DNA from: Escherichia coli
Lineage (GTDB): Bacteria > Pseudomonadota > Gammaproteobacteria > Enterobacterales > Enterobacteriaceae
Strand: one strand, 5' to 3'
Length of the DNA stretch: 64,000 nucleotides
Assembly (NCBI RefSeq): GCF_045037415.1
Contig: NZ_CP173439.1
The first letter of the stretch is position 1. Each line of letters opens with the position of its first letter. A program made the position numbers and the translations under genes. A model generated the notes under the pieces. That model did no database searches. It saw only the letters and a list, made by a program, of their open reading frames with translations, and was not told the origin of the DNA. Below, one piece after another: positions 3,099-54,547 of the stretch.

Positions 3099-3165
3099 AA
3101 ACATGCCTGCACGATTCACACATCATCCCATGGTGGCAGCCGGTTAACTTTCCTGCACCACCAGT
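3075..3165. repeat. Inverted-repeat copy A (~90 bp) bounding the AT-rich lasso island; partner at 9035..9125
   Basis: Reverse complement of 9035..9125 matches this stretch with a few mismatches (shared ...ccccgtaaaaacatgcctgcacg...catcccatggtggcagccggttaactttcctgc...). Confidence 0.6.
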
Positions 3166-3463
3166 GGAAAGAGGCCATGAGCAGTCCGAACAAAAAACCA
3201 CCCGTGATACTTATAATAATGGCCTCACCGGCCACCATTCCTGACGGCCCCCAGTAGATAAACCACATTGCACATCCCCAGGAAATGCCCCATAAGCCCC
3301 CCGTCAGCACCGTGACCTGCCAGAACGGCATAAAGGGTAATGGCGGAAGCCGGATCCCCAGCCGCCAGAGAATACGCAGAAGAGGAGGGGCATAATTGCT
3401 CCGCCACATCTTTTTGCTGTCCATCAGGGCAATGGCCCGGGCTTTTTTCTGCTCAAAAGTCAC
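3116..3463 (-). CDS. hypothetical small membrane protein
   Basis: 115-aa ORF with hydrophobic helices (LWGISWGCAMWFIYW, IIISITGGFLFGLLMASF); its last ~17 codons are duplicated in inverted orientation near 9040..9090. Confidence 0.5.
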   Translation of the reverse strand: MTFEQKKARAIALMDSKKMWRSNYAPPLLRILWRLGIRLPPLPFMPFWQVTVLTGGLWGISWGCAMWFIYWGPSGMVAGEAIIISITGGFLFGLLMASFHWWCRKVNRLPPWDDV

Positions 3464-3573
3464 AGGAGTACCTCCGTTCCATGATGTAAACGTGACACAG
3501 TTTATTGTTATTGATTATTATTATCATTATGTTATCACGCACCAGTACACGATGACAATAAAGGAGAAACCAG

Positions 3574-3921
3574 ATGAAAGCGGATATATCTGTAAAGTAT
3601 TTTCTGAAAAGCCTGATACCAGGTTTCATTATTCTTACAGTTTTTTATCTGGGATGGAAAGATAACCAGGAAAATTCAAGAATGTTTTATGCGTTCATCG
3701 GATGCATTATCAGCTCCATTACTTTTCCTTTTTCAATGAAGATAATACAGAAAATGGTAATAAGGTTTACAGGGAAAGAAGTCTGGCAAAAAGACTTCTT
3801 TACTAATCCAGTTGGCGGAAGCTTAACTGTAATATTTGAATTATTCTGTTTCGTTATATCAGTTCCTGTAGTTGCCATTTACTTAATATTTATATTCTGC
3901 AAAACCCTTTCAGGAAAATGA
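3574..3921 (+). CDS. small polytopic membrane protein, unknown function (first gene of the AT-rich island)
   Basis: 115-aa ORF with about three hydrophobic segments; AT-rich codon usage like the lasso genes downstream. Confidence 0.5.
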   Translation: MKADISVKYFLKSLIPGFIILTVFYLGWKDNQENSRMFYAFIGCIISSITFPFSMKIIQKMVIRFTGKEVWQKDFFTNPVGGSLTVIFELFCFVISVPVVAIYLIFIFCKTLSGK

Positions 3922-4456
3922 AAGGGCATCATTATATGTCAGATACCAATAAGTTTATTGTTCTGCTCAATAAACTTATCATTAACAAGCGCACTCACAG
4001 CAGCCATAATAATTGCAAAACCCAGAATACCTACAAGGGTCCCCGGCATGACGGAAAACGTCCATGCGGTAACAGATGAAGTAGCTCTTCCTGCTGCCAG
4101 TGATTCAAGTTTTACAAAAAATGGACGCCAGTTATCTGTCCAGACAACCTTACCAAACTCAGTGCTCCAGTCAGCAAAATCGTTGCCTTCAGTACACCGT
4201 GTTTTCTCTTCAGCTCTCTTCTGGTTGATGTCGGCAAGCTGGCAACAAAAATTCTCTTTTTACGTCAAGAACGTCATTTGCATGTTTTTACTCATTTGTT
4301 CTGGCACTGACGTTATTTCTCGCCGAATTTACCGCAGATTCAGCAAAGGTGATTTTATTGTAACTGCAACACCTACCAGATGACGGAAAACGGGTGAACG
4401 GATTAGAGTACGATTTTTCCATTTCGTGATCTTCACCTCAGAACCCCACCATTGAT

Positions 4457-4475
4457 GATAAAAATGATTATCATT
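4457..4475 (+). promoter_or_regulatory. Fur-box-like sequence next to the precursor promoter
   Basis: gataaaaatgattatcatt matches about 13 of 19 positions of the Fur consensus GATAATGATAATCATTATC; inner tgattatcatt is one mismatch from tgataatcatt. Confidence 0.3.
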
Positions 4476-4479
4476 CGCA

Positions 4480-4507
4480 TTGACACTTTGAAATAAGTAG
4501 TTATATT
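4480..4507 (+). promoter_or_regulatory. putative sigma-70 promoter of the lasso precursor gene
   Basis: TTGACA (4480..4485), 16-bp spacer, TATATT (4502..4507); about 70 bp upstream of the precursor ATG, which has an AAGGA Shine-Dalgarno. Confidence 0.35.
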
Positions 4508-4576
4508 TTTCATGGTTATTGAGCAATTGGTAACCAATGTAGGTTGTAGGTGTTTCATTTTCATTAAGGAATATGT

Positions 4577-4765
4577 ATGAAAAAACAATCTAAAGAAGTG
4601 AAAACCTCTGGCTCTGAACATCGTGAAATTATGATAGAAATTGATGCCTCTAAATCGACGAACGGTACCGGTGGAGGCTCCATCATTGAAGGGTCATACA
4701 CTGTCTATCGCTGCGATGGCGGAAGTGTCCCCTCGCGTCCTTTTGGCCCCCCATTCTGTCCTTAA
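4577..4765 (+). CDS. putative lasso-peptide precursor (A gene)
   Basis: 62-aa ORF MKKQSKEVKTSGSEHREIMIEIDASKSTNGTGGGSIIEGSYTVYRCDGGSVPSRPFGPPFCP; good SD; immediately upstream of the cyclase; Thr near the leader end, Gly-rich core start, Glu at a ring-forming distance, aromatic and Cys residues in the tail. Confidence 0.6.
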   Translation: MKKQSKEVKTSGSEHREIMIEIDASKSTNGTGGGSIIEGSYTVYRCDGGSVPSRPFGPPFCP

Positions 4766-4892
4766 ATTTAAAGGCTGGTCATGATTGAAATATTCACTTC
4801 TCTCAAACGAAAGCAATGAATCCGATAATACAGGTATATTCGATAAAAAGGACGTCTTTTGTGGCGTCCTTACCTTAAGGAGATTATTACGA

Positions 4893-6281
4893 ATGTCTTT
4901 GGGGGATAAATTTACATCTGGATACCGTGGGATTAATGCCTTCAATAGTGGCGTGATAAAACTTCTTGTTGCCAGAGAAAATGACTGGATTGAAGAAAAA
5001 CTTAGTGCCATTTTAACTCAATCACCTCGTATTGATTTCGAACCACTCATTGCGAGTATAGTTTTTGGGCGTACTGAGGGGAAAACTTCATTATTTAAAA
5101 ATGTGGAATGTATTGTTCCTGGTTGCAGTTTTAAAATTGACCACACGCACAATGGTGCATCCGTAAGTGAATATATTGACTGGAATGCAATTTCATATAA
5201 GACATTACCGCACGACCCGGCAGAGATTCTTTTTCAGTCTGTATCTGAAGTCGTCAACAGAAATCAAGGCGGATACTTTGTTGTGCGCCTGTCTGGTGGC
5301 ATGGACTCTACTGGCATTCTTCTCTCACTAATGGAGGCAGTTGATGTAAGCAGAATTATTGCCATAACTTATCGGTACCTTATGGGGACAAGCAATCAAG
5401 ATGAAGTATCAGCAAGGTATTTATGTAAAATATTTGGAATCAGGCAAATAATAATTGATTTTGAACCTCATTCATTATTTCATAGGCTTCCTTCACCAGT
5501 GCCTCCTGTTCTAAATATGAGAACAATAAATTTTAAAGTTTATGAAGAGGAAAGAAAGCGTATCGGAAGTATCTGTGGAGATAATTATACCCTGTTTGAT
5601 GGGCATGGGGGGGACCATGTATTTTGTGAGAAAATCCCGTTTGGAATAATAAAAGAGTTATTTTTCCATGGGAGTTTGTTAACCTCATGCCGTAAGTTAT
5701 TACAGATAGCTCGCCTTCATGGCATAAATATGAAAGATGTCTTATTAATGCATACTAATAGTATGCATTATCTTATAACTGAAGCACAGTGTTATTTTTC
5801 CAAAGATGTTATAAAAAACCTTCACTATGACAGAAAAACAGTAAGTGAAGAAAGAAAGTCAGCCCTTCAGGAGGCTATTCTTGATAATGGGACGAGCCTG
5901 ACGCTGAGTCTTACGGAAAACGATATATTCCCTTTTACAGACCAGAGGATGATAGGCTATGGTCTGAAACTCAGAGTTGAGGAGTCATTTGATACTACAT
6001 CAAAACGATTTCAATACAGAAAAGCGATTAATGACAGATATAAATTTGTATTTACCAGAAAAGATAAGGGGCATATAACAGGTGCATATCAGTCGGCCCT
6101 TAGTGTTAATAAGGACCGTGTTATTAATCTTCTGCGCCATGGGCAGTTCGCGACACACGGTTTGTTAAACTTGGAGGGGGTAGAGCGAGCAATAGAAACA
6201 AGTTCTCATGGCATCGGTGGAGTCAGTTTTATTCTTATGAAATTAATTGCTGCAGAACTTATCTTTGAAGGATATTTATAA
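4893..6281 (+). CDS. lasso-peptide cyclase (asparagine synthetase B-like, C protein)
   Basis: ORF 4785..6281 with the likely start at ATG 4893 (AAGGAG SD); PP-loop ATP pyrophosphatase motif VVRLSGGMDSTGIL; size like McjC; stop overlaps the next start (TAATG). Confidence 0.75.
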   Translation: MSLGDKFTSGYRGINAFNSGVIKLLVARENDWIEEKLSAILTQSPRIDFEPLIASIVFGRTEGKTSLFKNVECIVPGCSFKIDHTHNGASVSEYIDWNAISYKTLPHDPAEILFQSVSEVVNRNQGGYFVVRLSGGMDSTGILLSLMEAVDVSRIIAITYRYLMGTSNQDEVSARYLCKIFGIRQIIIDFEPHSLFHRLPSPVPPVLNMRTINFKVYEEERKRIGSICGDNYTLFDGHGGDHVFCEKIPFGIIKELFFHGSLLTSCRKLLQIARLHGINMKDVLLMHTNSMHYLITEAQCYFSKDVIKNLHYDRKTVSEERKSALQEAILDNGTSLTLSLTENDIFPFTDQRMIGYGLKLRVEESFDTTSKRFQYRKAINDRYKFVFTRKDKGHITGAYQSALSVNKDRVINLLRHGQFATHGLLNLEGVERAIETSSHGIGGVSFILMKLIAAELIFEGYL

Positions 6282-6964
6282 TGACTTCATTCTACTTTAA
6301 GCCGAATATACATCATGTCAATATTAATAATGAAATAACTATCCTTGATGAGATATCTGATCGTTATATCCTTCTTTCAGAAAAGCAATCAATTCTCTTA
6401 AAAGAGTATATGAGTGATGGTTCTCATAATTATGTCGGTGATACAATGAACCTGGAAGGTATAATTTCTAAGGAGTCGGGTACTCCTTTGGCAAAGAGTA
6501 CTCCGTCTCCTCAGGGGGTTGGTATATTGACCTGGAACAGTTATGTCAGCACTCGGTTGGGTATTGCCAGTTTTTTTTATATCTCTGAAGCAATAATGAG
6601 AATGATTCTTGTCCGAAAACGTCTCCAGTCAAAGGGTTTTCACCATTGCCTTGAGCATTGTCGTTGTGCGCTTAGCCAGAAGAGTTTTCCGTACATTTCC
6701 CTGAAAGATAAATTAATTATTGGGCAGAAGTTGAGCCAGAGTATTAAAATTGCGGCACCGTTTATCCCGGGCAAGGTTAAATGCCTTGAGTTTTCACTTG
6801 TTTTGTTCGACATGTTAGTGTCAAGAAAAATCAGTCCCACATTATTTATTGGATTCCAGCGCTATGATTTTCTTTCTCATGCATGGCTGGAAATTGATAA
6901 TGAAGTGGTTGCAGACCAAGATAACCTGAAAACAAAACTTACACCAATAATTAGAGTGGGATAA
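6281..6964 (+). CDS. lasso-peptide leader peptidase (transglutaminase-like Cys protease, B protein)
   Basis: 227 aa; candidate Cys...His...Asp triad (KVKCLEF ... LSHAWLEIDNE) with spacing like McjB; translationally coupled on both sides. Confidence 0.7.
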   Translation: MTSFYFKPNIHHVNINNEITILDEISDRYILLSEKQSILLKEYMSDGSHNYVGDTMNLEGIISKESGTPLAKSTPSPQGVGILTWNSYVSTRLGIASFFYISEAIMRMILVRKRLQSKGFHHCLEHCRCALSQKSFPYISLKDKLIIGQKLSQSIKIAAPFIPGKVKCLEFSLVLFDMLVSRKISPTLFIGFQRYDFLSHAWLEIDNEVVADQDNLKTKLTPIIRVG

Positions 6965-8688
6965 TGAAAATAAAAAATGTCATTTGTGAATTAAAATCAG
7001 GGGCAAGTGCTTACTCTTCGGCCTACAAGCTCATACGCTCACTGTATCCCGCATTCACATTTTCTTTTATCGGTGTGTCCATTCTCTTTATTCTGGCTTC
7101 GGTTCTTGGTGCATTACTTCCTTATCTGCTCAAAAAGACAGCGGAGGCGTATACTTTCTCTGAAGGGATATTATCTGCATTTTTCCTGATCACAATGACC
7201 TACGCCGTCAGCTGGACAGTGACCGAAGTACTGAAGAATATCAGAGGCATTTTTTCTGCGGGAATTCTGGCACAAGCAGATGCAGCACTAACCAGTAACA
7301 CGATGGAGATTTTACTTTCTATTAGTTTCCGGAAACAAAAGGAATTTGAGCCGGCGGTCCTGGCTGCAAATATTGATCGTGGCGCGCAATCATTCAGTGC
7401 GCTGACATTATCTGTTTTCTGGACACTACTCCCAATTACTGTAGAAATCAGTATGGCTGTTTATTTTCTTTATCAGAGTCTGGGTTTTACTTATTCACTT
7501 ATTTTCTCAATTTCTGTTATAGGTATGATTTTTCTTGCCTTCAGCATAGCGATCTTTAGTCGTCATATCCATACCGATATAATGAATACTCAGAATGGGG
7601 TGTATTCTTATACGATTGAGCGACTTGCCATGCCGTTGGATATCCGAATTAATTCAGCTCATGCAAAAGAAAGAGTTCTTCGCCAGGAAATTCTTAATCA
7701 GTATGTTAATACAATTAAGCTGACCAATAAAAAAATGGGCTTTTTACTGTCACTACAGGCAGTAGCTGTAGGCGTATTGCTTGCTATATCCGTACTGGTT
7801 CTGGTTTTTTTTAAAAAAGCGTCTCATATTGGAACTGGTGACTTTATTATGATTGTGGGCTATATTAGCATGCTAACATTTCAGTTGCGCACAATAGCCG
7901 GAGCCAGCATTGACATTCAACGCCAGATTGTGTACCTGAAAATTCTTCTGGAATATAACAGTATGCATCCCGAAGGGGTTATCCCTGATACAGTAAGCTC
8001 CCGCAGCACTGAGCGTATTTTTGATGTGCGTAATCTTGGAGCTTTTGCTGACGGCAGACTCCTCTTTAATAATGTGAGCTTCAGGATCCATGAAGGTGAA
8101 ATGTTTGCACTTTCTGCGCCTTCAGGTTTTGGTAAATCCACAATTCTGCAATATTTACTCGGTCTTGATACCCCAACTGAGGGCGATATTTATTTCCGAG
8201 GATACCGGATTAACACAGAGTTGAGTGCGTCTATCCTGGAGGACGTTGCTGTTGTGCCTCAAAAAGCCGTTCTGGTGCAGGGAACTATTCGTGATAATAT
8301 TCTGTATGGAACCGATGACATTCTTCCCGATGATGAACTGTTTTGCATCCTGAATTCATTGGGGTTAATTAAAGAGGACTGCGGAGAACATTTCCTTGCT
8401 TTCCTAGACCGGGATATTAATCCTCTGGGTAGTGGTTTGAGTGGTGGAGAGATCCAGCGATTATGCATAGCCCGCGCCCTAGCCCGTAAGAAAAAGATTA
8501 TCGTACTTGATGAACCCACGGCCTCTATTGGCGAAGAACTCGCGATAAAGATCATTACCTATATCCGGCAGCATTGCCCTACCGTTATTATTACAACTCA
8601 TAATCCACGAATTCTGGAGCTCGCCGATCATTTTTTTGATGGTATGTCAAAGTCTTGCGTCATTGCTGGAGAAGGCAGAGACCAATAA
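6964..8688 (+). CDS. ABC exporter (fused permease-ATPase, McjD-like export/immunity, D protein)
   Basis: 574 aa; N-terminal multi-TM domain; Walker A APSGFGKST, signature LSGGEIQR, Walker B IIVLDEPT. Confidence 0.85.
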   Translation: MKIKNVICELKSGASAYSSAYKLIRSLYPAFTFSFIGVSILFILASVLGALLPYLLKKTAEAYTFSEGILSAFFLITMTYAVSWTVTEVLKNIRGIFSAGILAQADAALTSNTMEILLSISFRKQKEFEPAVLAANIDRGAQSFSALTLSVFWTLLPITVEISMAVYFLYQSLGFTYSLIFSISVIGMIFLAFSIAIFSRHIHTDIMNTQNGVYSYTIERLAMPLDIRINSAHAKERVLRQEILNQYVNTIKLTNKKMGFLLSLQAVAVGVLLAISVLVLVFFKKASHIGTGDFIMIVGYISMLTFQLRTIAGASIDIQRQIVYLKILLEYNSMHPEGVIPDTVSSRSTERIFDVRNLGAFADGRLLFNNVSFRIHEGEMFALSAPSGFGKSTILQYLLGLDTPTEGDIYFRGYRINTELSASILEDVAVVPQKAVLVQGTIRDNILYGTDDILPDDELFCILNSLGLIKEDCGEHFLAFLDRDINPLGSGLSGGEIQRLCIARALARKKKIIVLDEPTASIGEELAIKIITYIRQHCPTVIITTHNPRILELADHFFDGMSKSCVIAGEGRDQ

Positions 8689-8712
8689 ACCACACACGTT
8701 AATTCATTTATA

Positions 8713-8980
8713 TCTAATCGGGGTTGTACGCCGGAAACGCCGAAATTTCCGATACAGCGAATTTGTTGATTTTTGAAGCATGTTTGGCAGGTTTTGACGT
8801 GTACGTTTATGGTGCAGTAAGTGAGAATTTATTCGTACCAGCCATATGATACGTTACGGGCAGTGATTTTTCGCGCTAGACAGCTATTTCTTTGCTGTCC
8901 GGTTAACTGTGGTCTTACGTACAGGTTGCCGAGCATAAAATTTGTGCCTCCCGGAAATTTCGGCGTTTCCGGCGTACAAC
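8713..8980. mobile_element. miniature inverted-repeat element (~268 bp) with 32-bp perfect terminal IRs beginning GGGG
   Basis: GGGGTTGTACGCCGGAAACGCCGAAATTTCCG at 8713..8744 and its exact reverse complement at 8949..8980; no ORF between. Confidence 0.45.
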
Positions 8981-9034
8981 CCCAAATAAATTCAATTAAT
9001 TACCTAAACAAGGTGAGACTTTTAGAGGAAATGA

Positions 9035-36138: not shown

Positions 36139-36377
36139 CGACCCAGGTAGCGCGCCGTATTCCCCCCGCCGGCCGTTTTCTTCGACATGTACATCAGGCG
36201 CGGAACTCATCGGGGCGCGGGAATGAAATCCCATTCAGACTCCGGATAGATTCAAGCAAGCCCACTTATCGTCAAAATCGGTGTTGCAAAAACGGGAGTG
36301 ACCATAGATCCGTTTTCCAAGCGGACCCCATAATATCGGCTGGTAAACATCACTCGCTAGTGCATTCTTTTTGTTGG

Positions 36378-36394
36378 TAATGATAATCATTTAC
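36378..36394 (+). promoter_or_regulatory. Fur box upstream of the ChaN-like/TonB/receptor cluster
   Basis: taATGATAATCATTtac contains a 13-bp perfect match to the Fur-box core AATGATAATCATT. Confidence 0.5.
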
Positions 36395-36470
36395 ATTCAT
36401 TCTTTGATGTTTTATCATAATTAATGTTTTGTCAATAAATATATGGAAACATATTGTTTCAGATGGGAAT

Positions 36471-37346
36471 ATGAGAAAGTTCATCCTTATTTCTATGATA
36501 ACGTTAGCTAGTGTTAGTCTGGGAGCCTGCAGACAGAATGTCACCATAAAGCAGGATGCGCCAGGGCAGAAAGCTTTCCTGACTGACGGGCAGATTTACG
36601 ATTTGCACAGTGGCAAAATTATTTCTAGCAGCGAGCTTTTGGCGGATCTTGCTACCGCTCAACATCTTATTATTGGTGAAAAACACGATAATGCCGAGCA
36701 TCATCAGATTGAGCTTTGGCTTATTCAAAATTTGCTCATCCAGCGACCACAGGGGAGTGTGTTGCTTGAGATGTTGACGTCAGAGCAACAGCCCCGAGTT
36801 AACCAAGTTAAATGTTGGCTGAAAGATAATCCTGTGGTTCGAGATAGCCGTGTTCAGGAACTACTTAACTGGCAAAAAGGGTGGTCCTGGGAGATGTATG
36901 GCGACATCGTCATGCAGCTATTACGTGGGCCTTACCCGCTGCTCAATGCCAACATTGGCCGGGAGCAGATATTGGCACTGTACAAAAAAAACGAATTTCC
37001 TAAAGGAAAAAAATCCACTGCACCTGTGGTACAAGAAGCTCTGCGTGAAACCATCATATCTATGCATGAAGGCAACCTTGAAAGCCAGCAACTGACGTCA
37101 ATGCTCTCTATTCAGCAGCAGCGGGATCGCTACATGGCCCGCCAGCTTCTGAGTGCCCCGGTACCGTCGTTGTTGATTGCAGGTGGTTATCACGCGTCAA
37201 AAAGCATGGGCGTACCGTTACACATGGAAGATCTTGCCACCGGCACCCATCCAGTGGTGTTGATGCTTGCAGAAAAAGGAATGAACATCACAGTAGATCA
37301 TGCTGACTACGTGTGGTTTGTAGCGCCAGATACAACAAAAAGGTAA
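36471..37346 (+). CDS. ChaN-like lipoprotein (Tiki/haem-binding-uptake family)
   Basis: Lipoprotein signal with lipobox LGAC; motif GEKHDNAEHH typical of the ChaN family as recalled; start taken at the internal Met of ORF 36429..37346. Confidence 0.55.
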   Translation: MRKFILISMITLASVSLGACRQNVTIKQDAPGQKAFLTDGQIYDLHSGKIISSSELLADLATAQHLIIGEKHDNAEHHQIELWLIQNLLIQRPQGSVLLEMLTSEQQPRVNQVKCWLKDNPVVRDSRVQELLNWQKGWSWEMYGDIVMQLLRGPYPLLNANIGREQILALYKKNEFPKGKKSTAPVVQEALRETIISMHEGNLESQQLTSMLSIQQQRDRYMARQLLSAPVPSLLIAGGYHASKSMGVPLHMEDLATGTHPVVLMLAEKGMNITVDHADYVWFVAPDTTKR

Positions 37347-37353
37347 ACCATGG

Positions 37354-38130
37354 ATGATGAATATTCTCCACTTCTCACAGTCGGTAAAATGGAGCAGCTG
37401 GTTTATCTGTTCTCTACTGCTTCATGGACTGATTTTCCTTGCGTTTATCTGGCGTTTTTCCGAAGTTCAGCCCGCTATGTCTCCTGCACCGGCGATCATG
37501 CTGCAATGGGCAGAAATTATAGAGGCTCCTTCTTCTCCACTTTCGCTTCCGGTGGGAATCGCTCAACAGGAGTCCGCAGTGACAGAAGAAAAGCAACAAA
37601 CTGAGGACAGACAACAACGTCCTGTCACTGAAGACAGTGATGCAACCATTGAAATAACTAGGAAGAAAAAGTCATCCGATGGAGAAAAGAAAAAGACACG
37701 TCCACCTCGTAAGATAAAGGCTCAAACCAGCGACAGCAACCCCACAGCCGTTTCCAGTAATGCTGCACCTCAGGCTCTGGTCGAATCGTCCCGTATTGCT
37801 GCGCCTTTTAACAGTGACTCAACAAAGCGAGATAATTCTGAGGCATCTTGGGAAAGCAGAGTAAAAGGCCACCTAAACCGTTATAAACGTTACCCTGGCG
37901 ATGCCAGAAAACGTGCACGAACCGGCACAGCCGTCGTGACTTTTACCGTAAACACGGAAGGCACTATTGTCAGTAGTTTCTTGGAAATCTCTTCAGGAAC
38001 CTTTTCTCTTGACCGCGAAGCTATTGCTGTTTTAGAACGCGCTCAACCACTTCCCAAACCACCGCCTGAAATATTGGAGGGAGGATTATTTAAAGTAAAA
38101 ATGCCGATTACCTTTAAGTTGAAGGAGTAA
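37354..38130 (+). CDS. tonB: TonB-family energy transducer
   Basis: N-terminal membrane anchor, Pro/Lys/Glu-rich spacer, C-terminal TonB domain (YPGDARKRARTGTAVVTFTVNTEGTIVSSFLEISSGTFSLDREAIAVL). Confidence 0.8.
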   Translation: MMNILHFSQSVKWSSWFICSLLLHGLIFLAFIWRFSEVQPAMSPAPAIMLQWAEIIEAPSSPLSLPVGIAQQESAVTEEKQQTEDRQQRPVTEDSDATIEITRKKKSSDGEKKKTRPPRKIKAQTSDSNPTAVSSNAAPQALVESSRIAAPFNSDSTKRDNSEASWESRVKGHLNRYKRYPGDARKRARTGTAVVTFTVNTEGTIVSSFLEISSGTFSLDREAIAVLERAQPLPKPPPEILEGGLFKVKMPITFKLKE

Positions 38131-38298
38131 AGGGATAATTGGCCGTTCAAGTTCATTTAACTGAAATTTAATTTTCATTTTTATGCTGAACATTTTATCA
38201 AACTTTTCCACTGTCAAAAAAATCAAAAAGACAGTAGAACATAATTAATAAACAAATAGTTATACTTATCTTTATTAATATTATACCCAAGGAAATTT

Positions 38299-40560
38299 AT
38301 GAACGTTATAAAACTGGCTATCGGCTCAGGCATATTATTGCTCAGCTGCGGTGCTTACTCACAATCCATCAGTGAAAAAACTAATTCCGACAAAAAAGGA
38401 GCGGCAGAATTCAGTCCGCTCAGCGTTTCTGTCGGGAAGACGACCAGTGAGCAGGAAGCTCTCGAGAAAACAGGCGCGACCAGTTCCCGGACAACGGACA
38501 AAAACCTGCAATCACTTGACGCAACAGTGCGTAGTATGCCTGGTACTTATACTCAAATAGATCCTGGTCAGGGAGCAATCAGTGTGAATATTCGAGGCAT
38601 GAGCGGATTTGGTCGTGTAAACACTATGGTCGATGGTATTACCCAGAGTTTTTACGGAACCTCTACCTCCGGAACAACGACGCATGGTTCAACTAACAAT
38701 ATGGCTGGCGTACTTATAGATCCTAACTTACTGGTAGCAGTTGATGTTACACGCGGTGACAGCAGTGGCTCTGAAGGGATCAACGCCCTTGCCGGTAGTG
38801 CAAATATGCGTACTATTGGCGTTGACGATGTAATATTTAACGGTAATACATATGGCCTTCGTTCACGTTTCTCTGTCGGTAGTAATGGGCTGGGACGCAG
38901 CGGAATGATCGCCCTTGGTGGAAAAAGCGACGCTTTTACGGATACGGGAAGCATTGGCGTTATGGCTGCTGTGAGCGGCAGTTCTGTGTACTCTAATTTC
39001 TCAAATGGTTCTGGAATTAACAGCAAAGAGTTTGGTTATGATAAATATATGAAGCAGAACCCCAAATCCCAACTGTATAAAATGGATATCAGACCAGACG
39101 AATTTAACAGCTTCGAACTTTCCGCTCGAACCTATGAAAATAAATTTACACGTCGTGATATAACCAGTGACGACTATTACATTAAATATCATTACACCCC
39201 TTTTTCTGAATTAATTGACTTTAACGTAACGGCCAGTACCAGTCGCGGTAATCAAAAGTATCGTGATGGCTCGCTGTATACTTTCTACAAAACCTCAGCG
39301 CAAAATCGTTCTGACGCGCTGGATATCAACAATACCAGCCGGTTCACTGTCGCGGACAATGACCTGGAGTTTATGCTGGGCAGCAAACTGATGCGTACCC
39401 GCTATGACCGGACCATTCACTCAGCGGCGGGCGACCCGAAAGCGAATCAGGAATCGATCGAGAACAATCCGTTCGCACCCTCCGGCCAGCAGGATATTTC
39501 AGCGCTGTATACCGGGCTGAAGGTTACGCGCGGCATCTGGGAGGCAGATTTCAATCTCAACTACACACGTAACAGGATCACAGGGTACAAGCCCGCCTGC
39601 GATTCACGCGTTATCTGCGTGCCACAGGGTAGCTACGATATTGACGATAAAGAGGGTGGCTTCAACCCTTCAGTTCAGCTTTCTGCTCAGGTAACACCAT
39701 GGCTTCAGCCGTTCATTGGCTACAGCAAATCCATGCGCGCCCCGAACATCCAGGAGATGTTCTTCTCTAATTCAGGAGGCGCATCCATGAACCCATTCCT
39801 GAAGCCTGAACGTGCAGAAACCTGGCAGGCGGGTTTTAACATTGATACCAGAGATTTACTGGTCGAACAGGATGCCCTGCGCTTTAAGGCTCTGGCGTAC
39901 CGCAGCAGGATCCAGAACTACATCTACAGCGAGTCTTATCTGGTTTGTTCTGGAGGTCGTAAATGCAGTCTGCCTGAGGTGATTGGCAATGGCTGGGAGG
40001 GCATTAGCGATGAATACAGCGACAATATGTACATCTACGTTAACTCGGCAAGCGACGTTATCGCAAAGGGCTTCGAACTGGAGATGGATTATGATGCAGG
40101 TTTTGCTTTTGGTCGACTCTCTTTCAGCCAGCAGCAAACAGACCAGCCAACCTCCATCGCCAGCACCCACTTTGGCGCAGGGGATATAACCGAACTGCCC
40201 AGAAAATACATGACGCTGGATACTGGTGTTCGCTTCTTCGATAACGCGTTGACCCTGGGCACTATCATAAAATACACAGGCAAGGCTCGTCGCCTGTCGC
40301 CTGATTTTGAGCAGGACGAACATACCGGCGCAATAATCAAACAGGATTTGCCGCAGATCCCAACGATTATCGATCTCTATGGTACTTACGAGTACAACCG
40401 CAACCTGACACTGAAACTTTCGGTACAAAACCTGATGAACAGAGATTATTCGGAGGCGCTGAATAAGCTCAACATGATGCCAGGTCTTGGTGACGAAACC
40501 CACCCAGCCAATTCCGCGCGTGGCAGAACATGGATATTTGGCGGGGATATTCGTTTCTGA
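38299..40560 (+). CDS. TonB-dependent outer-membrane receptor (YncD-like)
   Basis: 753 aa; signal peptide, plug then beta-barrel, C-terminal ...WIFGGDIRF. Confidence 0.85.
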   Translation: MNVIKLAIGSGILLLSCGAYSQSISEKTNSDKKGAAEFSPLSVSVGKTTSEQEALEKTGATSSRTTDKNLQSLDATVRSMPGTYTQIDPGQGAISVNIRGMSGFGRVNTMVDGITQSFYGTSTSGTTTHGSTNNMAGVLIDPNLLVAVDVTRGDSSGSEGINALAGSANMRTIGVDDVIFNGNTYGLRSRFSVGSNGLGRSGMIALGGKSDAFTDTGSIGVMAAVSGSSVYSNFSNGSGINSKEFGYDKYMKQNPKSQLYKMDIRPDEFNSFELSARTYENKFTRRDITSDDYYIKYHYTPFSELIDFNVTASTSRGNQKYRDGSLYTFYKTSAQNRSDALDINNTSRFTVADNDLEFMLGSKLMRTRYDRTIHSAAGDPKANQESIENNPFAPSGQQDISALYTGLKVTRGIWEADFNLNYTRNRITGYKPACDSRVICVPQGSYDIDDKEGGFNPSVQLSAQVTPWLQPFIGYSKSMRAPNIQEMFFSNSGGASMNPFLKPERAETWQAGFNIDTRDLLVEQDALRFKALAYRSRIQNYIYSESYLVCSGGRKCSLPEVIGNGWEGISDEYSDNMYIYVNSASDVIAKGFELEMDYDAGFAFGRLSFSQQQTDQPTSIASTHFGAGDITELPRKYMTLDTGVRFFDNALTLGTIIKYTGKARRLSPDFEQDEHTGAIIKQDLPQIPTIIDLYGTYEYNRNLTLKLSVQNLMNRDYSEALNKLNMMPGLGDETHPANSARGRTWIFGGDIRF

Positions 40561-40628
40561 TGACAATTTCCGCTAGGTTCAGACAATACGTTTTCTCTCT
40601 TATGTCAATTTTATTGCAGGAACGAAAA

Positions 40629-41804
40629 ATGAATATTTTCACTTTATCCAAAGCACCGCTATACCTGTTAATTTCACTATTTTTACCCACGATGGCCATG
40701 GCTATCGATCCACCTGAACGCGAACTTTCGCGATTTGCCCTGAAAACGAATTACCTTCAGTCCCCTGATGAAGGCGTCTATGAACTGGCGTTTGATAATG
40801 CCAGTAAAAAGGTGTTTGCAGCAGTCACCGATCGTGTAAATCGTGAAGCCAATAAAGGCTATCTGTATTCGTTTAATTCAGATTCGCTGAAAGTCGAAAA
40901 TAAATACACGATGCCATACCGGGCATTTTCGCTGGCGATAAATCAGGATAAACATCAGCTCTATATCGGACACACCCAGTCAGCGTCCCTGCGTATCAGT
41001 ATGTTTGACACCCCAACCGGCAAACTGGTAAGAACCAGCGACAGGTTAAGTTTTAAAGCGGCAAACGCTGCAGATTCGCGTTTTGAGCATTTTCGCCATA
41101 TGGTTTACAGCCAGGATTCCGATACCCTGTTTGTGAGTTATAGCAATATGCTGAAAACGGCCGAGGGCATGAAGCCTCTGCATAAGCTGTTAATGCTCGA
41201 CGGGACGACGCTTGCCTTAAAAGGCGAGGTTAAGGATGCTTACAAAGGTACAGCGTATGGTCTGACGATGGATGAAAAAACACAGAAAATCTACGTTGGC
41301 GGAAGAGATTACATCAACGAAATTGATGCGAAAAATCAGACGCTGCTGCGTACCATCCCGTTGAAAGATCCGAGACCACAAATCACAAGTGTGCAGAATC
41401 TGGCGGTGGACTCCGCTTCTGACCGTGCCTTTGTGGTGGTATTCGACCATGACGATCGTTCCGGTACAAAAGATGGACTCTATATTTTTGACTTACGCGA
41501 CGGTAAACAGCTTGGCTATGTGCACACAGGAGCCGGAGCTAACGCGGTGAAATACAATCCGAAATATAACGAACTGTATGTCACCAACTTCACTAGCGGC
41601 ACCATCAGCGTAGTGGATGCCACCAAATACAGCATCACCCGTGAATTTAACATGCCGGTCTACCCAAACCAGATGGTGTTGTCGGACGATATGGATACCC
41701 TTTACATTGGCATCAAAGAAGGCTTTAACCGCGATTGGGATCCTGATGTGTTTGTGGAAGGAGCTAAAGAACGTATTCTGAGCATTGATTTGAAAAAGTC
41801 GTGA
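40629..41804 (+). CDS. periplasmic beta-propeller protein (YncE-like)
   Basis: Signal peptide from internal Met (MNIFTLSKAPLYLLISLFLPTMAMA); repeated YV/beta-propeller blades (LYIGHTQS, IYVGG, LYVTNFTSGTISVVD); E. coli yncE likewise sits beside yncD. Confidence 0.65.
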   Translation: MNIFTLSKAPLYLLISLFLPTMAMAIDPPERELSRFALKTNYLQSPDEGVYELAFDNASKKVFAAVTDRVNREANKGYLYSFNSDSLKVENKYTMPYRAFSLAINQDKHQLYIGHTQSASLRISMFDTPTGKLVRTSDRLSFKAANAADSRFEHFRHMVYSQDSDTLFVSYSNMLKTAEGMKPLHKLLMLDGTTLALKGEVKDAYKGTAYGLTMDEKTQKIYVGGRDYINEIDAKNQTLLRTIPLKDPRPQITSVQNLAVDSASDRAFVVVFDHDDRSGTKDGLYIFDLRDGKQLGYVHTGAGANAVKYNPKYNELYVTNFTSGTISVVDATKYSITREFNMPVYPNQMVLSDDMDTLYIGIKEGFNRDWDPDVFVEGAKERILSIDLKKS

Positions 41805-42657: not shown

Positions 42658-42984
42658 ATGACTAAAAATACTCGTTTTTCCCCCGAAGTCCGTCAACGGG
42701 CAGTCCGTATGGTTCTGGAAAGTCAGGGCGAATATGACTCACAATGGGCGACAATTTGTTCCATTGCCCCAAAGATTGGCTGTACACCGGAGACTCTGCG
42801 TGTCTGGGTACGCCAGCATGAGCGGGATACCGGAGGCGGTGATGGCGGGCTCACCACCGCTGAACGTCAGCGTCTGAAAGAGCTGGAACGTGAAAATCGT
42901 GAACTGCGCCGCAGTAACGATATCCTTCGCCAGGCTTCCGCTTATTTTGCGAAGGCGGAGTTCGACCGCCTCTGGAAAAAGTGA
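42658..42984 (+). CDS. IS629-like OrfA
   Basis: 108 aa, HTH plus leucine-zipper region. Confidence 0.85.
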
Positions 42985-43872
42985 TGCCACTGCTGGATAA
43001 GCTGCGTAAGCTGTACGGGGTCGGACCGGTATGCAGTGAACTACATATTGCCCCGTCAACGTATTACCACTGTCAGCAACAGCGACATCATCCTGATAAA
43101 CGCAGTGCCCGTGCGCAGCGCGATGACTGGCTGAAGAAAGAGATACTGCGCGTATACGATGGGAATCATCAGGTATACGGTGTGCGTAAAGTCTGGCGTC
43201 AGTTGTTACGGGAAGGAATCAGGGTAGCCAGATGTACAGTGGCGCGCCTCATGGCGGTTATGGGACTTGCCGGTGTTCTCCGGGGTAAAAAGGTCCGCAC
43301 TACCGTCAGCCGGAAAGCCGTTGCCGCAGGCGACCGCGTAAACCGTCAGTTTGTGGCAGAACGTCCTGACCAGTTGTGGGTGGCTGATTTTACTTACGTC
43401 AGCACATGGCAGGGGGTCGTCTATGTGGCGTTCATCATTGATGTGTTTGCCGGATACATCGTGGGGTGGCGGGTTCTCATCGTCCATGGAAACGACATTC
43501 GTGCTGGATGCACTGGAGCAGGCGTTATGGGCCCGTCGACCGTCCGGCACGGTCCATCACAGTGATAAAGGTTCTCAGTATGTATCGCTGGCCTACACAC
43601 AGCGGCTTAAGGAAGCCGGATTACTGGCATCAACAGGAAGTACAGGCGACTCGTATGACAACGCGATGGCGGAGAACATCAATGGTCTTTACAAAGCGGA
43701 GGTAATACACCGTAAGAGCTGGAAAAACCGTGCAGAAGTGGAACTGGCCACACTCACGTGGGTGGACTGGTATAACAATCGACGATTGCTGGAAAGGCTG
43801 GGCCATACTCCTCCGGCAGAAGCAGAAAAAGCTTATTATGCTTCCATCGGAAACGATGATCTGGCAGCCTGA
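42981..43872 (+). pseudogene. IS629-like OrfB (DDE transposase) with an internal frameshift
   Basis: Two overlapping ORFs (42981..43565 and 43351..43872) each carry part of the OrfB sequence; frame switch near 43480. Confidence 0.7.
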
Positions 43873-52566: not shown

Positions 52567-54513
52567 TTATGGGTTATTTTTTATCGTCTCCCCGGGAACC
52601 GCGCTTTTGCGCCGCATCACCCACAGCGCCACCAGCGCCGCGAGCAGCAATACGACCTGCGGTAACAACGTTTCCACGTAGGGATAAATCCCCAGCCAGC
52701 TGATTTCAGGGAAGCCGTTAATCAACGTAGGCTGGAACAGTTTGCCTTCCACCAGTTCCAGAACGCCTTTGCCCGCAAAGACGAAGGCCATCAGATACAT
52801 GAAACTGCCGGTAAACATAAAGAAGGGTTTCAGCGGCAGGCGCACTACTGAGTAACGCATCACCAGCCAGGCGAGCAGCAGCACCACGCAGCCAATCACA
52901 AAACCGGCGCCAATCGCCATATGGCCGGATACCGTGTTTGCATCGCCAATCAGAGCGTAATAGAACAGCACCGTTTCCGCCCCTTCGCGGTACACCGCCA
53001 GGAAGCTGGTCAGCCATAGTCCGACCAGGGAGCCTCGCGACAGGGAATGAGACAGTTTGCCTTCCAGCCAGGCTTTCCAGTGGCGCGCTTCCACTTTGGA
53101 CAGCAGCCAGTAACTCATAAAGAACAGCATCACGACGGCAATCAGCATCGTTATGCCTTCCAGCAGTTCACGGCTGGCGCCGGAGTTAGTAAACAGCATC
53201 TGGAAGATAGCGGCGGTGATGACGCTGGCGATCAGCGCCACAATTACCGACTGACGAATAAGCGGCAGCTTATCCTGATGGTTGTTTTTCACCATGTAGG
53301 CCACGATTGCCGCAACAATCAGCAGCGCTTCCAGCCCCTCGCGCACGATGATCATCAGACTATAGAGCAGCAGACTCCACTGGGTTTCTTCGCCTTCGCC
53401 CAGCATCGTCACGGCTTTTTGCAGATCCTGCGCCAGCGCGCTGGCCTCTGCATTCAGGCGCTCAACCGGCTGACCGGCCTTCATCAGACTGACCAAGCGG
53501 GTAAAATACGCCTCCAGCGTGGTTTTAAATGCCGAATCGCGAGAGCCGATTTTGTTTTCCATGCCGCTGGCTTCGAAGCGGTCGAAGTAGGTATCCTGGA
53601 TATCCAGAATCGCATTCTTCGCATCGCCGCCCTGATAGCGCGCTATCGCGTCCTGAATGCTCTGGTTAATTCCCGTCGTCACCTCAGCCCAGTCGGTGCG
53701 GTTATTTCCCTCGTCCGCCGCCGGAATGTTGTCTGCGCTTTGCGCTGCGGCAACCTGCTGATCGTCACGGGTGGTTGGCAAGCCGGGTAAGATATCCTCG
53801 ATATCCTGTAGCAGCGTAGTGACCTGATAGGAGACATCGTTGAGATGGTCAGGTTGCGCGGTCAGCGCAATCAGGGATGAGAATTGTTGGTTAATGGAGG
53901 CGGCATCTTTTGCAGAACGGTTTTGTCTGAGGGACATCTCCATCTCAGAGTTTTTAAAGCCCTGATAGTGCGCCTGTTGAACGTGCTGACTGGCAACGCT
54001 GTAATTCCCGGCCTGATATTCAGTGACCGCCTGCGCCAGCAGATCGTCGATCGTCCTGAAACTCTCCTGCCAGTGAACGGCAATGTCGTCCCTGGACAGC
54101 GCGTTGTGCTGCTCTTCGGCCACCAGACGATGTCCGCCATCCAGCACCGGTTCCACTTCGCGCAGTGCGGCTTTCAGCCAGTCAATGCGCGCCTGGACGT
54201 CAGCGAGCGGTTTTTTCTCGCCAATCATTCGACGGATCTCGCCGAATGCGCTCTCCATCTCGTAACTTTTGCGCGCGGAAATGTTGATGCGGATCGGCCC
54301 TTCCAGGTTCTCGAACACCTCAAAATAGGCCATTTGTACCGTGCGGCGCGCCTCGTCGGCATGCTGTTGCTGATAAAGTTCCGCTGTTTTATCAAGACGT
54401 TGCTCGATATCTTCAATCAAAGGCGCATAATTCGTCGACGCCCAGACACTCATGCTTATAAACAAGCCAAAGAGAGTAACCAACAAAGAGTTACGAAAGT
54501 TACGCACGTGCAC
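52567..54513 (-). CDS. fetM: FTR1-family iron permease with large N-terminal periplasmic domain (FetM-like)
   Basis: 648 aa; REGLEALLIVAAI (RExxE motif) in the C-terminal membrane domain; Fur box immediately upstream. Confidence 0.8.
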   Translation of the reverse strand: MHVRNFRNSLLVTLFGLFISMSVWASTNYAPLIEDIEQRLDKTAELYQQQHADEARRTVQMAYFEVFENLEGPIRINISARKSYEMESAFGEIRRMIGEKKPLADVQARIDWLKAALREVEPVLDGGHRLVAEEQHNALSRDDIAVHWQESFRTIDDLLAQAVTEYQAGNYSVASQHVQQAHYQGFKNSEMEMSLRQNRSAKDAASINQQFSSLIALTAQPDHLNDVSYQVTTLLQDIEDILPGLPTTRDDQQVAAAQSADNIPAADEGNNRTDWAEVTTGINQSIQDAIARYQGGDAKNAILDIQDTYFDRFEASGMENKIGSRDSAFKTTLEAYFTRLVSLMKAGQPVERLNAEASALAQDLQKAVTMLGEGEETQWSLLLYSLMIIVREGLEALLIVAAIVAYMVKNNHQDKLPLIRQSVIVALIASVITAAIFQMLFTNSGASRELLEGITMLIAVVMLFFMSYWLLSKVEARHWKAWLEGKLSHSLSRGSLVGLWLTSFLAVYREGAETVLFYYALIGDANTVSGHMAIGAGFVIGCVVLLLAWLVMRYSVVRLPLKPFFMFTGSFMYLMAFVFAGKGVLELVEGKLFQPTLINGFPEISWLGIYPYVETLLPQVVLLLAALVALWVMRRKSAVPGETIKNNP

Positions 54514-54528
54514 ACCGCCAAAGAATAC

Positions 54529-54547
54529 AAATGATAATTATTATCAT
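54529..54547 (-). promoter_or_regulatory. Fur box upstream of fetM
   Basis: AATGATAATTATTATCAT, one mismatch from the Fur core; lies 15-35 bp upstream of the annotated GTG start, so the true start or promoter geometry needs checking. Confidence 0.5.

Follow-up and report, generated by a model that had tools for sequence, protein, structure and literature searches.

A predicted Fur operator at the promoter of a plasmid-borne lasso-peptide operon in Escherichia coli

Does iron control the production of an uncharacterised lasso peptide encoded on E. coli plasmids? The question is raised by a 64,000-nucleotide stretch of E. coli DNA (contig NZ_CP173439.1), referred to here as the window, in which a sequence resembling a Fur box lies at the upstream edge of the promoter of a small precursor gene. 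A first-pass annotation, made from the sequence alone, had proposed that this element renders peptide production iron-repressed. Every computational test applied, covering the score of the element on a Fur position weight matrix (PWM), its organization as a phased array, and its conservation, supports this proposal, in which repression itself is what we infer. We put the probability that positions 4454-4484 are a functional, repressing Fur operator on the lasso precursor promoter at roughly three in four.

Downstream of the promoter, four co-directional genes form a lasso-peptide operon in the order A-C-B-D. The features of the promoter and the operon are as follows.

4454..4484, no strand assigned: putative Fur operator, three 19-mers in 6-bp phase (PWM, null tests, phase conservation)
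4480..4485, plus strand: -35 hexamer TTGACA (promoter scan; invariant in nine of nine homologous loci)
4502..4507, plus strand: -10 hexamer TATATT (promoter scan; 16-bp spacer)
4514..4576, plus strand: predicted 5' UTR, with the transcription start probably near 4514
4577..4765, plus strand: precursor gene A, 62 amino acids (open reading frame; annotated as hypothetical protein WP_000744815.1)
4849..4870, plus strand: G+C-rich hairpin of 8 bp in the A-C spacer (folding; analogous hairpins in the related loci L022-L026)
4893..6281, plus strand: C gene, asparagine-synthase-like lasso cyclase (PF00733, similarity to McjC, RefSeq annotation)
6281..6964, plus strand: B gene, lasso peptide biosynthesis B2 protein, a transglutaminase-like leader peptidase (NF033537, PF13471)
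6964..8688, plus strand: D gene, ABC exporter (matches to ABC permease and ATPase families)

The B protein is recognized by NF033537 with 82.4 bits (cut-off 33) and by PF13471 with an E value of 2.7e-16. The C protein matches PF00733 (E = 1.5e-4), is 23% identical to McjC (E = 1e-7), and is annotated in RefSeq as an asparagine synthase-related protein; its scores on the NCBIfam macrolactam/lasso cyclase models are far below their cut-offs, and the synteny of its gene with B and D is conserved across related clusters. The D protein, 24% identical to McjD over 500 amino acids, is predicted to be an exporter that probably mediates both export of the peptide and self-immunity. An alignment of the precursor family revealed the invariant pattern AS..TNG.G.G...E....VY plus two Cys residues, and with it the Thr at position -2, the Gly1 and the acidic residue at core positions 7 to 9 that characterize lasso clusters. 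Cleavage after TN would place Thr at -2 and leave a core beginning with GTGGGSIIE, in which Gly1 and Glu9 would close a nine-residue ring. The predicted core of 33 amino acids, GTGGGSIIEGSYTVYRCDGGSVPSRPFGPPFCP, probably carries a disulfide in its tail, which is, to our knowledge, unusual for proteobacterial lasso peptides. No paper reporting the peptide sequence was found in the searchable literature, and searches of the general lasso and microcin literature returned no description of the cluster.

The precursor promoter combines TTGACA and TATATT with 11 of 12 consensus matches and was the best promoter-like site that the promoter scan detected within 3500-6000. Its -10 hexamer ends 70 bp before the precursor ATG at 4577, just as the first-pass annotation had described it. 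TATTTT at 4504-4509 provides an alternative -10 hexamer with an 18-bp spacer. Neither the promoter scan nor inspection identified, on either strand, an alternative promoter overlapping the Fur box.

Candidate Fur sites were scored with a palindromic 19-bp PWM of 15 bits information, which we refined iteratively from the consensus. Training was performed on a hand-picked set of 16 intergenic regions from classic Fur-repressed operons of E. coli K-12 (fepA-fes, fepD-entS, fepB-entC, fhuA, cirA, fiu, tonB, exbB, fecI, feoA, sufA, ryhB, sodA, fur, fhuF, and fhuE). Scored in a leave-one-out scheme, these promoters spread over 4.8-21.9 bits around a median of about 15.6. As an independent control we used the aerobactin iucA operator, a footprinted site that was retrieved from plasmids by its sequence and was 100% identical in hundreds of records; it reached 24.0 bits on the same PWM.

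At the lasso promoter, the top 19-mer spans 4460-4478 (AAAAATGATTATCATTCGC) and scores 19.56 bits, which is far above any sensible threshold and higher than what 12 of the 16 training promoters attain in the leave-one-out scheme. It ends 1 nt before the -35 hexamer and differs from the Fur consensus GATAATGATAATCATTATC at 4 positions, as does its phased neighbour at 4454-4472 (16.0 bits); at least 4 mismatches were also present in the best site of 10 of the 16 known K-12 regions. A third register at 4466-4484 (12.2 bits) covers five of the six bases of the -35 hexamer. Offsets from 4460 that are not multiples of 6 bp scored at most 5.7 bits and were mostly negative. Overlapping registers in 6-bp phase are typical of Fur hexamer arrays, built from hexamers of the NATWAT type. 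The core of the array, AATGATTATCATT at 4463-4475, forms a perfect 6-1-6 palindrome and matches the centre of the Fur consensus exactly, and the only other exact occurrence of AATGATWATCATT in the window lies within the box at 36379. The first-pass annotation was thus right to see a Fur-box-like sequence beside the promoter, but it had read the element in the register 4457-4475 (gataaaaatgattatcatt), which is shifted by 3 bp from the phase of the array and reaches 5.7 bits. It had also let the box end 5 bp before the -35 hexamer, a distance that has to be corrected, as the array abuts and overlaps this hexamer.

A comparable arrangement is found at the aerobactin promoter P1 (iucA) of pColV-K30-type plasmids, likewise a plasmid-borne sigma-70 promoter with TTGACA and a Fur box at its upstream edge; the aerobactin operator sequence occurred in 804 plasmid records, where it immediately precedes iucA. 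The 19-mer of P1 overlaps TTGACA by 2 nt, whereas that of the lasso promoter ends 1 nt before it. A difference of only 3 bp from the aerobactin operator suggests that classical exclusion of RNA polymerase is likely. In contrast to P1, no secondary Fur site was detectable over the spacer, the -10 hexamer or the +1 position of the lasso promoter, and the cargo differs as well, with a siderophore pathway in the case of aerobactin and a RiPP antibiotic-type operon here.

According to the mechanism that we favour, the predicted promoter drives the precursor gene and, by read-through, probably the whole A-C-B-D operon. Under iron-replete conditions, dimers of Fe2+-loaded Fur would fill the phased hexamers, thereby blocking access of RNA polymerase to the -35 hexamer and the DNA upstream of it. 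When iron becomes scarce, Fur would leave and the near-consensus promoter would fire. The peptide, presumably antibacterial, would thus be made at a time when competitors expose their iron-regulated outer-membrane receptors.

Most Fur-repressed promoters have their Fur site between the -35 and -10 hexamers. At the lasso promoter, the highest-scoring 19-mer has its centre at about -45 and thus lies ahead of the -35 hexamer, which is covered by the weakest register (12.2 bits) alone. This position further upstream than in most cases leaves activation or anti-silencing as a minority possibility. Fur might then bind to the array but activate transcription, counteract silencing by H-NS, or only fine-tune expression, and production would not be iron-repressed. 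Many regulators activate from sites upstream of the -35 hexamer, and the low G+C content of the cluster (39.7%, compared to 49% in the window) makes it a plausible H-NS target. Activation by Fe-Fur through anti-silencing is established for E. coli ftnA. However, a promoter with 11 of 12 consensus matches should need no activator, and array registers extend into the -35 hexamer not only in the window but also in L002 (11.4 bits) and L022 (16.3 bits), two of the homologous loci considered below. Moreover, the aerobactin operator, which is a classic example of repression, differs in geometry by only 3 bp, and the ecological logic and all bacteriocin precedents favour repression. We therefore regard a non-repressing role of Fur at this promoter as improbable.

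Another explanation would dispense with Fur altogether. The array occupies about -38 to -60, the zone of UP elements, and might be an A+T-rich sequence akin to these elements or a palindrome that arose by chance upstream of a strong promoter, with its conservation reflecting promoter strength. The A+T richness of both motif and cluster inflates PWM matches, as illustrated by two intragenic ones at 6592 (17.6 bits) and 5754 (14.6 bits). Both were considered as extra operators, but two changes lower the score of the former to 8.7 bits in Salmonella; because of this loss, it is probably a chance match in A+T-rich coding DNA.

Several estimates of chance expectation speak against such an origin of the promoter array. 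Per position, the exact tail probability of its score amounts to 8.6e-8 if the background is uniform and to 9e-7 if it follows the A+T-rich composition around the promoter, corresponding to about 3e-4 expected matches at that score in the 350-bp upstream region. None of 123,510 K-12 control positions outside the training regions reached 19.56 bits (maximum 15.67), and only one of them had 4 or fewer consensus mismatches. Dinucleotide shuffles of 4230-4576 attained the score in 5 of 20,000 cases (0.025%); the proportion of such shuffles rose to 0.3% when the whole cluster was considered and to 2% for the whole window.

Conservation of the array provides a further line of evidence. A homology search with the precursor recovered only four near-identical clusters, and more distant relatives were reached via the cyclase. 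The allele of an IncF plasmid (CP148386) carries 6 substitutions within 4454-4479, yet its best register, shifted by -6, reaches 21.7 bits, and that of an IncK2 plasmid scores 16.0 and 15.0 bits. A Salmonella salamae plasmid (CP053317), 87% identical over the cluster, shows 9 differences in the array and retains 19.2 bits. When an equal number of random substitutions was introduced, 21.7 or 19.2 bits were reached in 0.1-0.2% of trials, and in 0.4% when the new bases were drawn from the observed A+T-biased set; since some substitutions are common to several lineages, these allele tests are not fully independent.

Distant A-C-B-D clusters with different precursors and cyclases of about 50% identity were represented by L022, L023 (Salmonella enterica), and L025. 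Further relatives were L024, from a sediment metagenome (about 50% identical), and L026, of the Pantoea agglomerans type (about 33%). Searches of the plasmid collection for clusters of the L022 and L025 types gave no match. The promoter DNA of these distant relatives cannot be aligned with the window, and yet TTGACA was situated 85-104 bp upstream of the precursor ATG in all nine loci compared. The position of the -10-like hexamer was kept in the nine loci too: TATATT recurs unchanged in all E. coli alleles as well as in Salmonella salamae and L025, and L022, L023, and L024 have TATGTT, TACCTT, and TATCTT, respectively, at 18-bp spacing. Fur 19-mers in the relatives keep the same 6-bp phase, with starts at 26 and/or 20 bp ahead of the -35 hexamer. 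The in-phase registers scored 22.7 and 18.8 bits in L023, 21.1 and 16.3 bits in L022, and 15.0, 14.0, and 10.8 bits in L025; they were weak in L024 (5.8 and 7.7 bits) and L026 (5.7, 7.9, and 7.5 bits). The array was the top match of the entire fetched locus in L017 (21.7 bits), L002 (19.2 bits), L022, L023, and L025. The sequence of the array thus turns over while its consensus quality and its phase relative to the -35 hexamer are kept, which is strong evidence of function.

These observations bear directly on the explanation that dispenses with Fur. Unalignable lineages nevertheless share the G and C positions specific to Fur as well as the 6-bp phase, for example as GATAACGCAAATCATTATC and GATAATGAAAATCACTATC, the match at the promoter is conserved whereas the intragenic one is lost, and UP elements need no palindrome. 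Together with the rarity of the score under the local composition, this renders an origin in A+T richness or chance unlikely, about as much so as a non-repressing role of Fur. We consider it very unlikely that the palindrome is instead the operator of another Fur-family or plasmid regulator, or a recombination or mobile-element end: homology to the Salmonella salamae plasmid does start inside the array, at about 4462, and ends at about 8643, and an imperfect 14-nt inverted repeat (12 of 14 positions; 4455-4468 and 8627-8640) lies near both homology ends, but with 13 pairs of this kind in 4.8 kb the repeat is probably due to chance, the non-homologous Salmonella sequence upstream still supplies Fur-like bases, lineages with unrelated flanks keep Fur-consensus arrays phased to the -35 hexamer, and the conserved A-C-B-D module is without a regulator gene. 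The consensus sequences of Zur, FNR/CRP, ArgR, and LexA were compared with the array by eye only.

Fur-regulated promoters have precedents among bacteriocins of enterobacterial plasmids or islands, where iron depletion turns on toxin, immunity or export genes through a Fur site at the promoter. The siderophore-microcins H47, M, and E492 are regulated by Fur. In the colicin V system, the cvi and cvaA promoters carry a Fur site, and cvi is induced by iron depletion (PMC6795089). These peptides belong to the class II linear or siderophore-modified types, whereas the product of the operon described here is predicted to be a lasso RiPP. A comparison within the lasso peptides is provided by microcin J25 (MccJ25), whose mcjABCD cluster is likewise plasmid-borne and enterobacterial and comprises a precursor gene, B, C, and an ABC exporter gene. 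Transcription of mcjA is repressed by Fe2+, and this repression is relieved by bipyridyl or by replacement of the promoter (PMC12967822). However, the Mcj proteins are only 23-37% identical to their counterparts in the window, the precursors are unrelated, and mcjA is divergent from mcjBCD, in contrast to the co-directional A-C-B-D order. The best Fur-PWM match in the mcjB-mcjA intergenic region (L020:4162-4500) amounts to 9.05 bits, and no strong box was found there, compared to arrays of 15-23 bits in the lasso family studied here. With this best match, the analogy stops short of a shared operator, and the lack of a strong Fur box at the MccJ25 promoter implies that lasso microcins are not under Fur control as a rule; iron may affect MccJ25 indirectly or via a weak or non-canonical site. 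The parallel with several microcins drawn in the first-pass annotation is imperfect for MccJ25, which is repressed by Fe2+ and yet offers no match above 9.05 bits.

The operon thus represents a distinct lasso family, whose predicted Fur operator is much clearer than that of MccJ25. Judging from the phased arrays, the family has conserved its predicted direct control by Fur, unlike the situation in MccJ25, which is iron-sensitive but has no comparable Fur box. This extends the well-known theme of bacteriocin-type promoters operated by Fur and introduces no new concept. In practice, the predicted induction of the uncharacterised lasso peptide by iron limitation or by a fur mutation might be the key to its detection and purification. 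Related clusters occur in Salmonella and Pantoea. Fur control furthermore points to an iron-regulated outer-membrane receptor as a likely entry route.

It is tempting to speculate that the peptide itself is an iron-starvation effector, either metal-binding in the manner of a metallophore or acting as a ligand on a TonB-dependent receptor under iron regulation, which it would exploit or block. The invariant Gly1...Glu9 ring motif, the invariant Cys pair, and the presence of adjacent iron-uptake cargo on the plasmids prompted this idea, which we nevertheless consider quite improbable. If it were true, direct Fur control would be an ancestral, family-defining trait, in contrast to MccJ25.

Downstream of the promoter, the predicted leader transcript shows structural features of its own. 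Its 5' end would fold into a stem-loop of 9 bp (4514-4535, -14 kcal/mol, z = -2.4), and a perfect 13-bp palindrome, ATTGGTAACCAAT at 4526-4538, forms part of this stem-loop region. The changes that Salmonella salamae carries in the stem (4518 A>G and 4530 G>A) preserve pairing. Smaller 5' hairpins are present in L023 and L024, and none is clear in L022 or L025. The leader ends with a Shine-Dalgarno sequence, AAGGA at 4566-4570, before the precursor gene. A stable hairpin follows the precursor gene in every family member, and the copy in the window is without a following T-run. This hairpin is possibly a partial terminator or an mRNA stabiliser, which would adjust how much precursor transcript is made relative to that of the enzymes. 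A second Fur-like box directly follows the hairpin in the A-C spacer of L022 (L022:2431-2449, 17.6 bits) and L023 (L023:2430-2448, 18.2 bits); no such box was detected in the A-C spacer of the window (best match in 4766-4892, 6.1 bits), L025, or L024.

The 4.6-kb segment 4200-8800 is 100% identical to several E. coli plasmids, and the matching plasmid that was typed, NZ_CP146683.1, has Col156 and IncFIB replicons. Among 5,426 complete E. coli genomes, 26 contained the promoter and precursor segment, always on plasmids and never on the chromosome. Directly upstream of the cluster, at about 3939-4229 on the minus strand, lies a truncated pore-forming colicin gene, of which only the C-terminal fragment is left, and an orphan colicin-E1-family immunity gene (3574-3921) is intact. 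It appears that the 5' part of a colicin operon has been replaced by the lasso cluster. The related cluster in L023 adjoins the same ccdAB-integrase backbone. Just downstream of the exporter gene, a 40-nt inverted repeat (8712-8751 and 8952-8991), with arms 93% complementary and 200 nt apart, looks like a miniature mobile element or the remnant of an insertion sequence. An Rfam scan of the whole window gave no match near the lasso locus; its sole match was the ALIL pseudoknot RF01497 at 42939-43055 (116 bits), which belongs to an IS3-family insertion sequence as its frameshift element.

The four top-scoring Fur-like loci of the window are all intergenic and start at 36376 (20.7 bits), 54527 (19.6 bits), 4460 (19.6 bits), and 3507 (19.3 bits). 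The predicted box at 36376-36394 (GGTAATGATAATCATTTAC) overlaps a TTTACA -35 hexamer and is followed by an operon at 36429-41804, which encodes a cjrA-like protein of 305 amino acids, a TonB-family protein, a TonB-dependent receptor of the haem/siderophore type, and a YncE-like beta-propeller, an arrangement that resembles cjrABC-senB. The predicted box at 54527-54545 (ACAAATGATAATTATTATC) is located just upstream of a minus-strand gene for an iron permease of the EfeU/Ftr1 family (648 amino acids, 52567-54513). The first-pass annotation had listed these two boxes, at 36378 and 54529, as stronger than the one at the lasso promoter. Their existence is borne out by the PWM, but their scores are about equal to that of the 4460 site. 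Since both precede iron-uptake operons, the annotation was correct in noting Fur-regulated cargo on this replicon. The fourth locus, an array at 3507-3531 with registers of 19.3 and 16.3 bits and 3 consensus mismatches in two registers, occupies part of a 110-bp spacer that is flanked by a DUF6404 gene (3116-3463, minus strand) on one side and by the colicin-E1-family immunity gene, which is on the plus strand, on the other.
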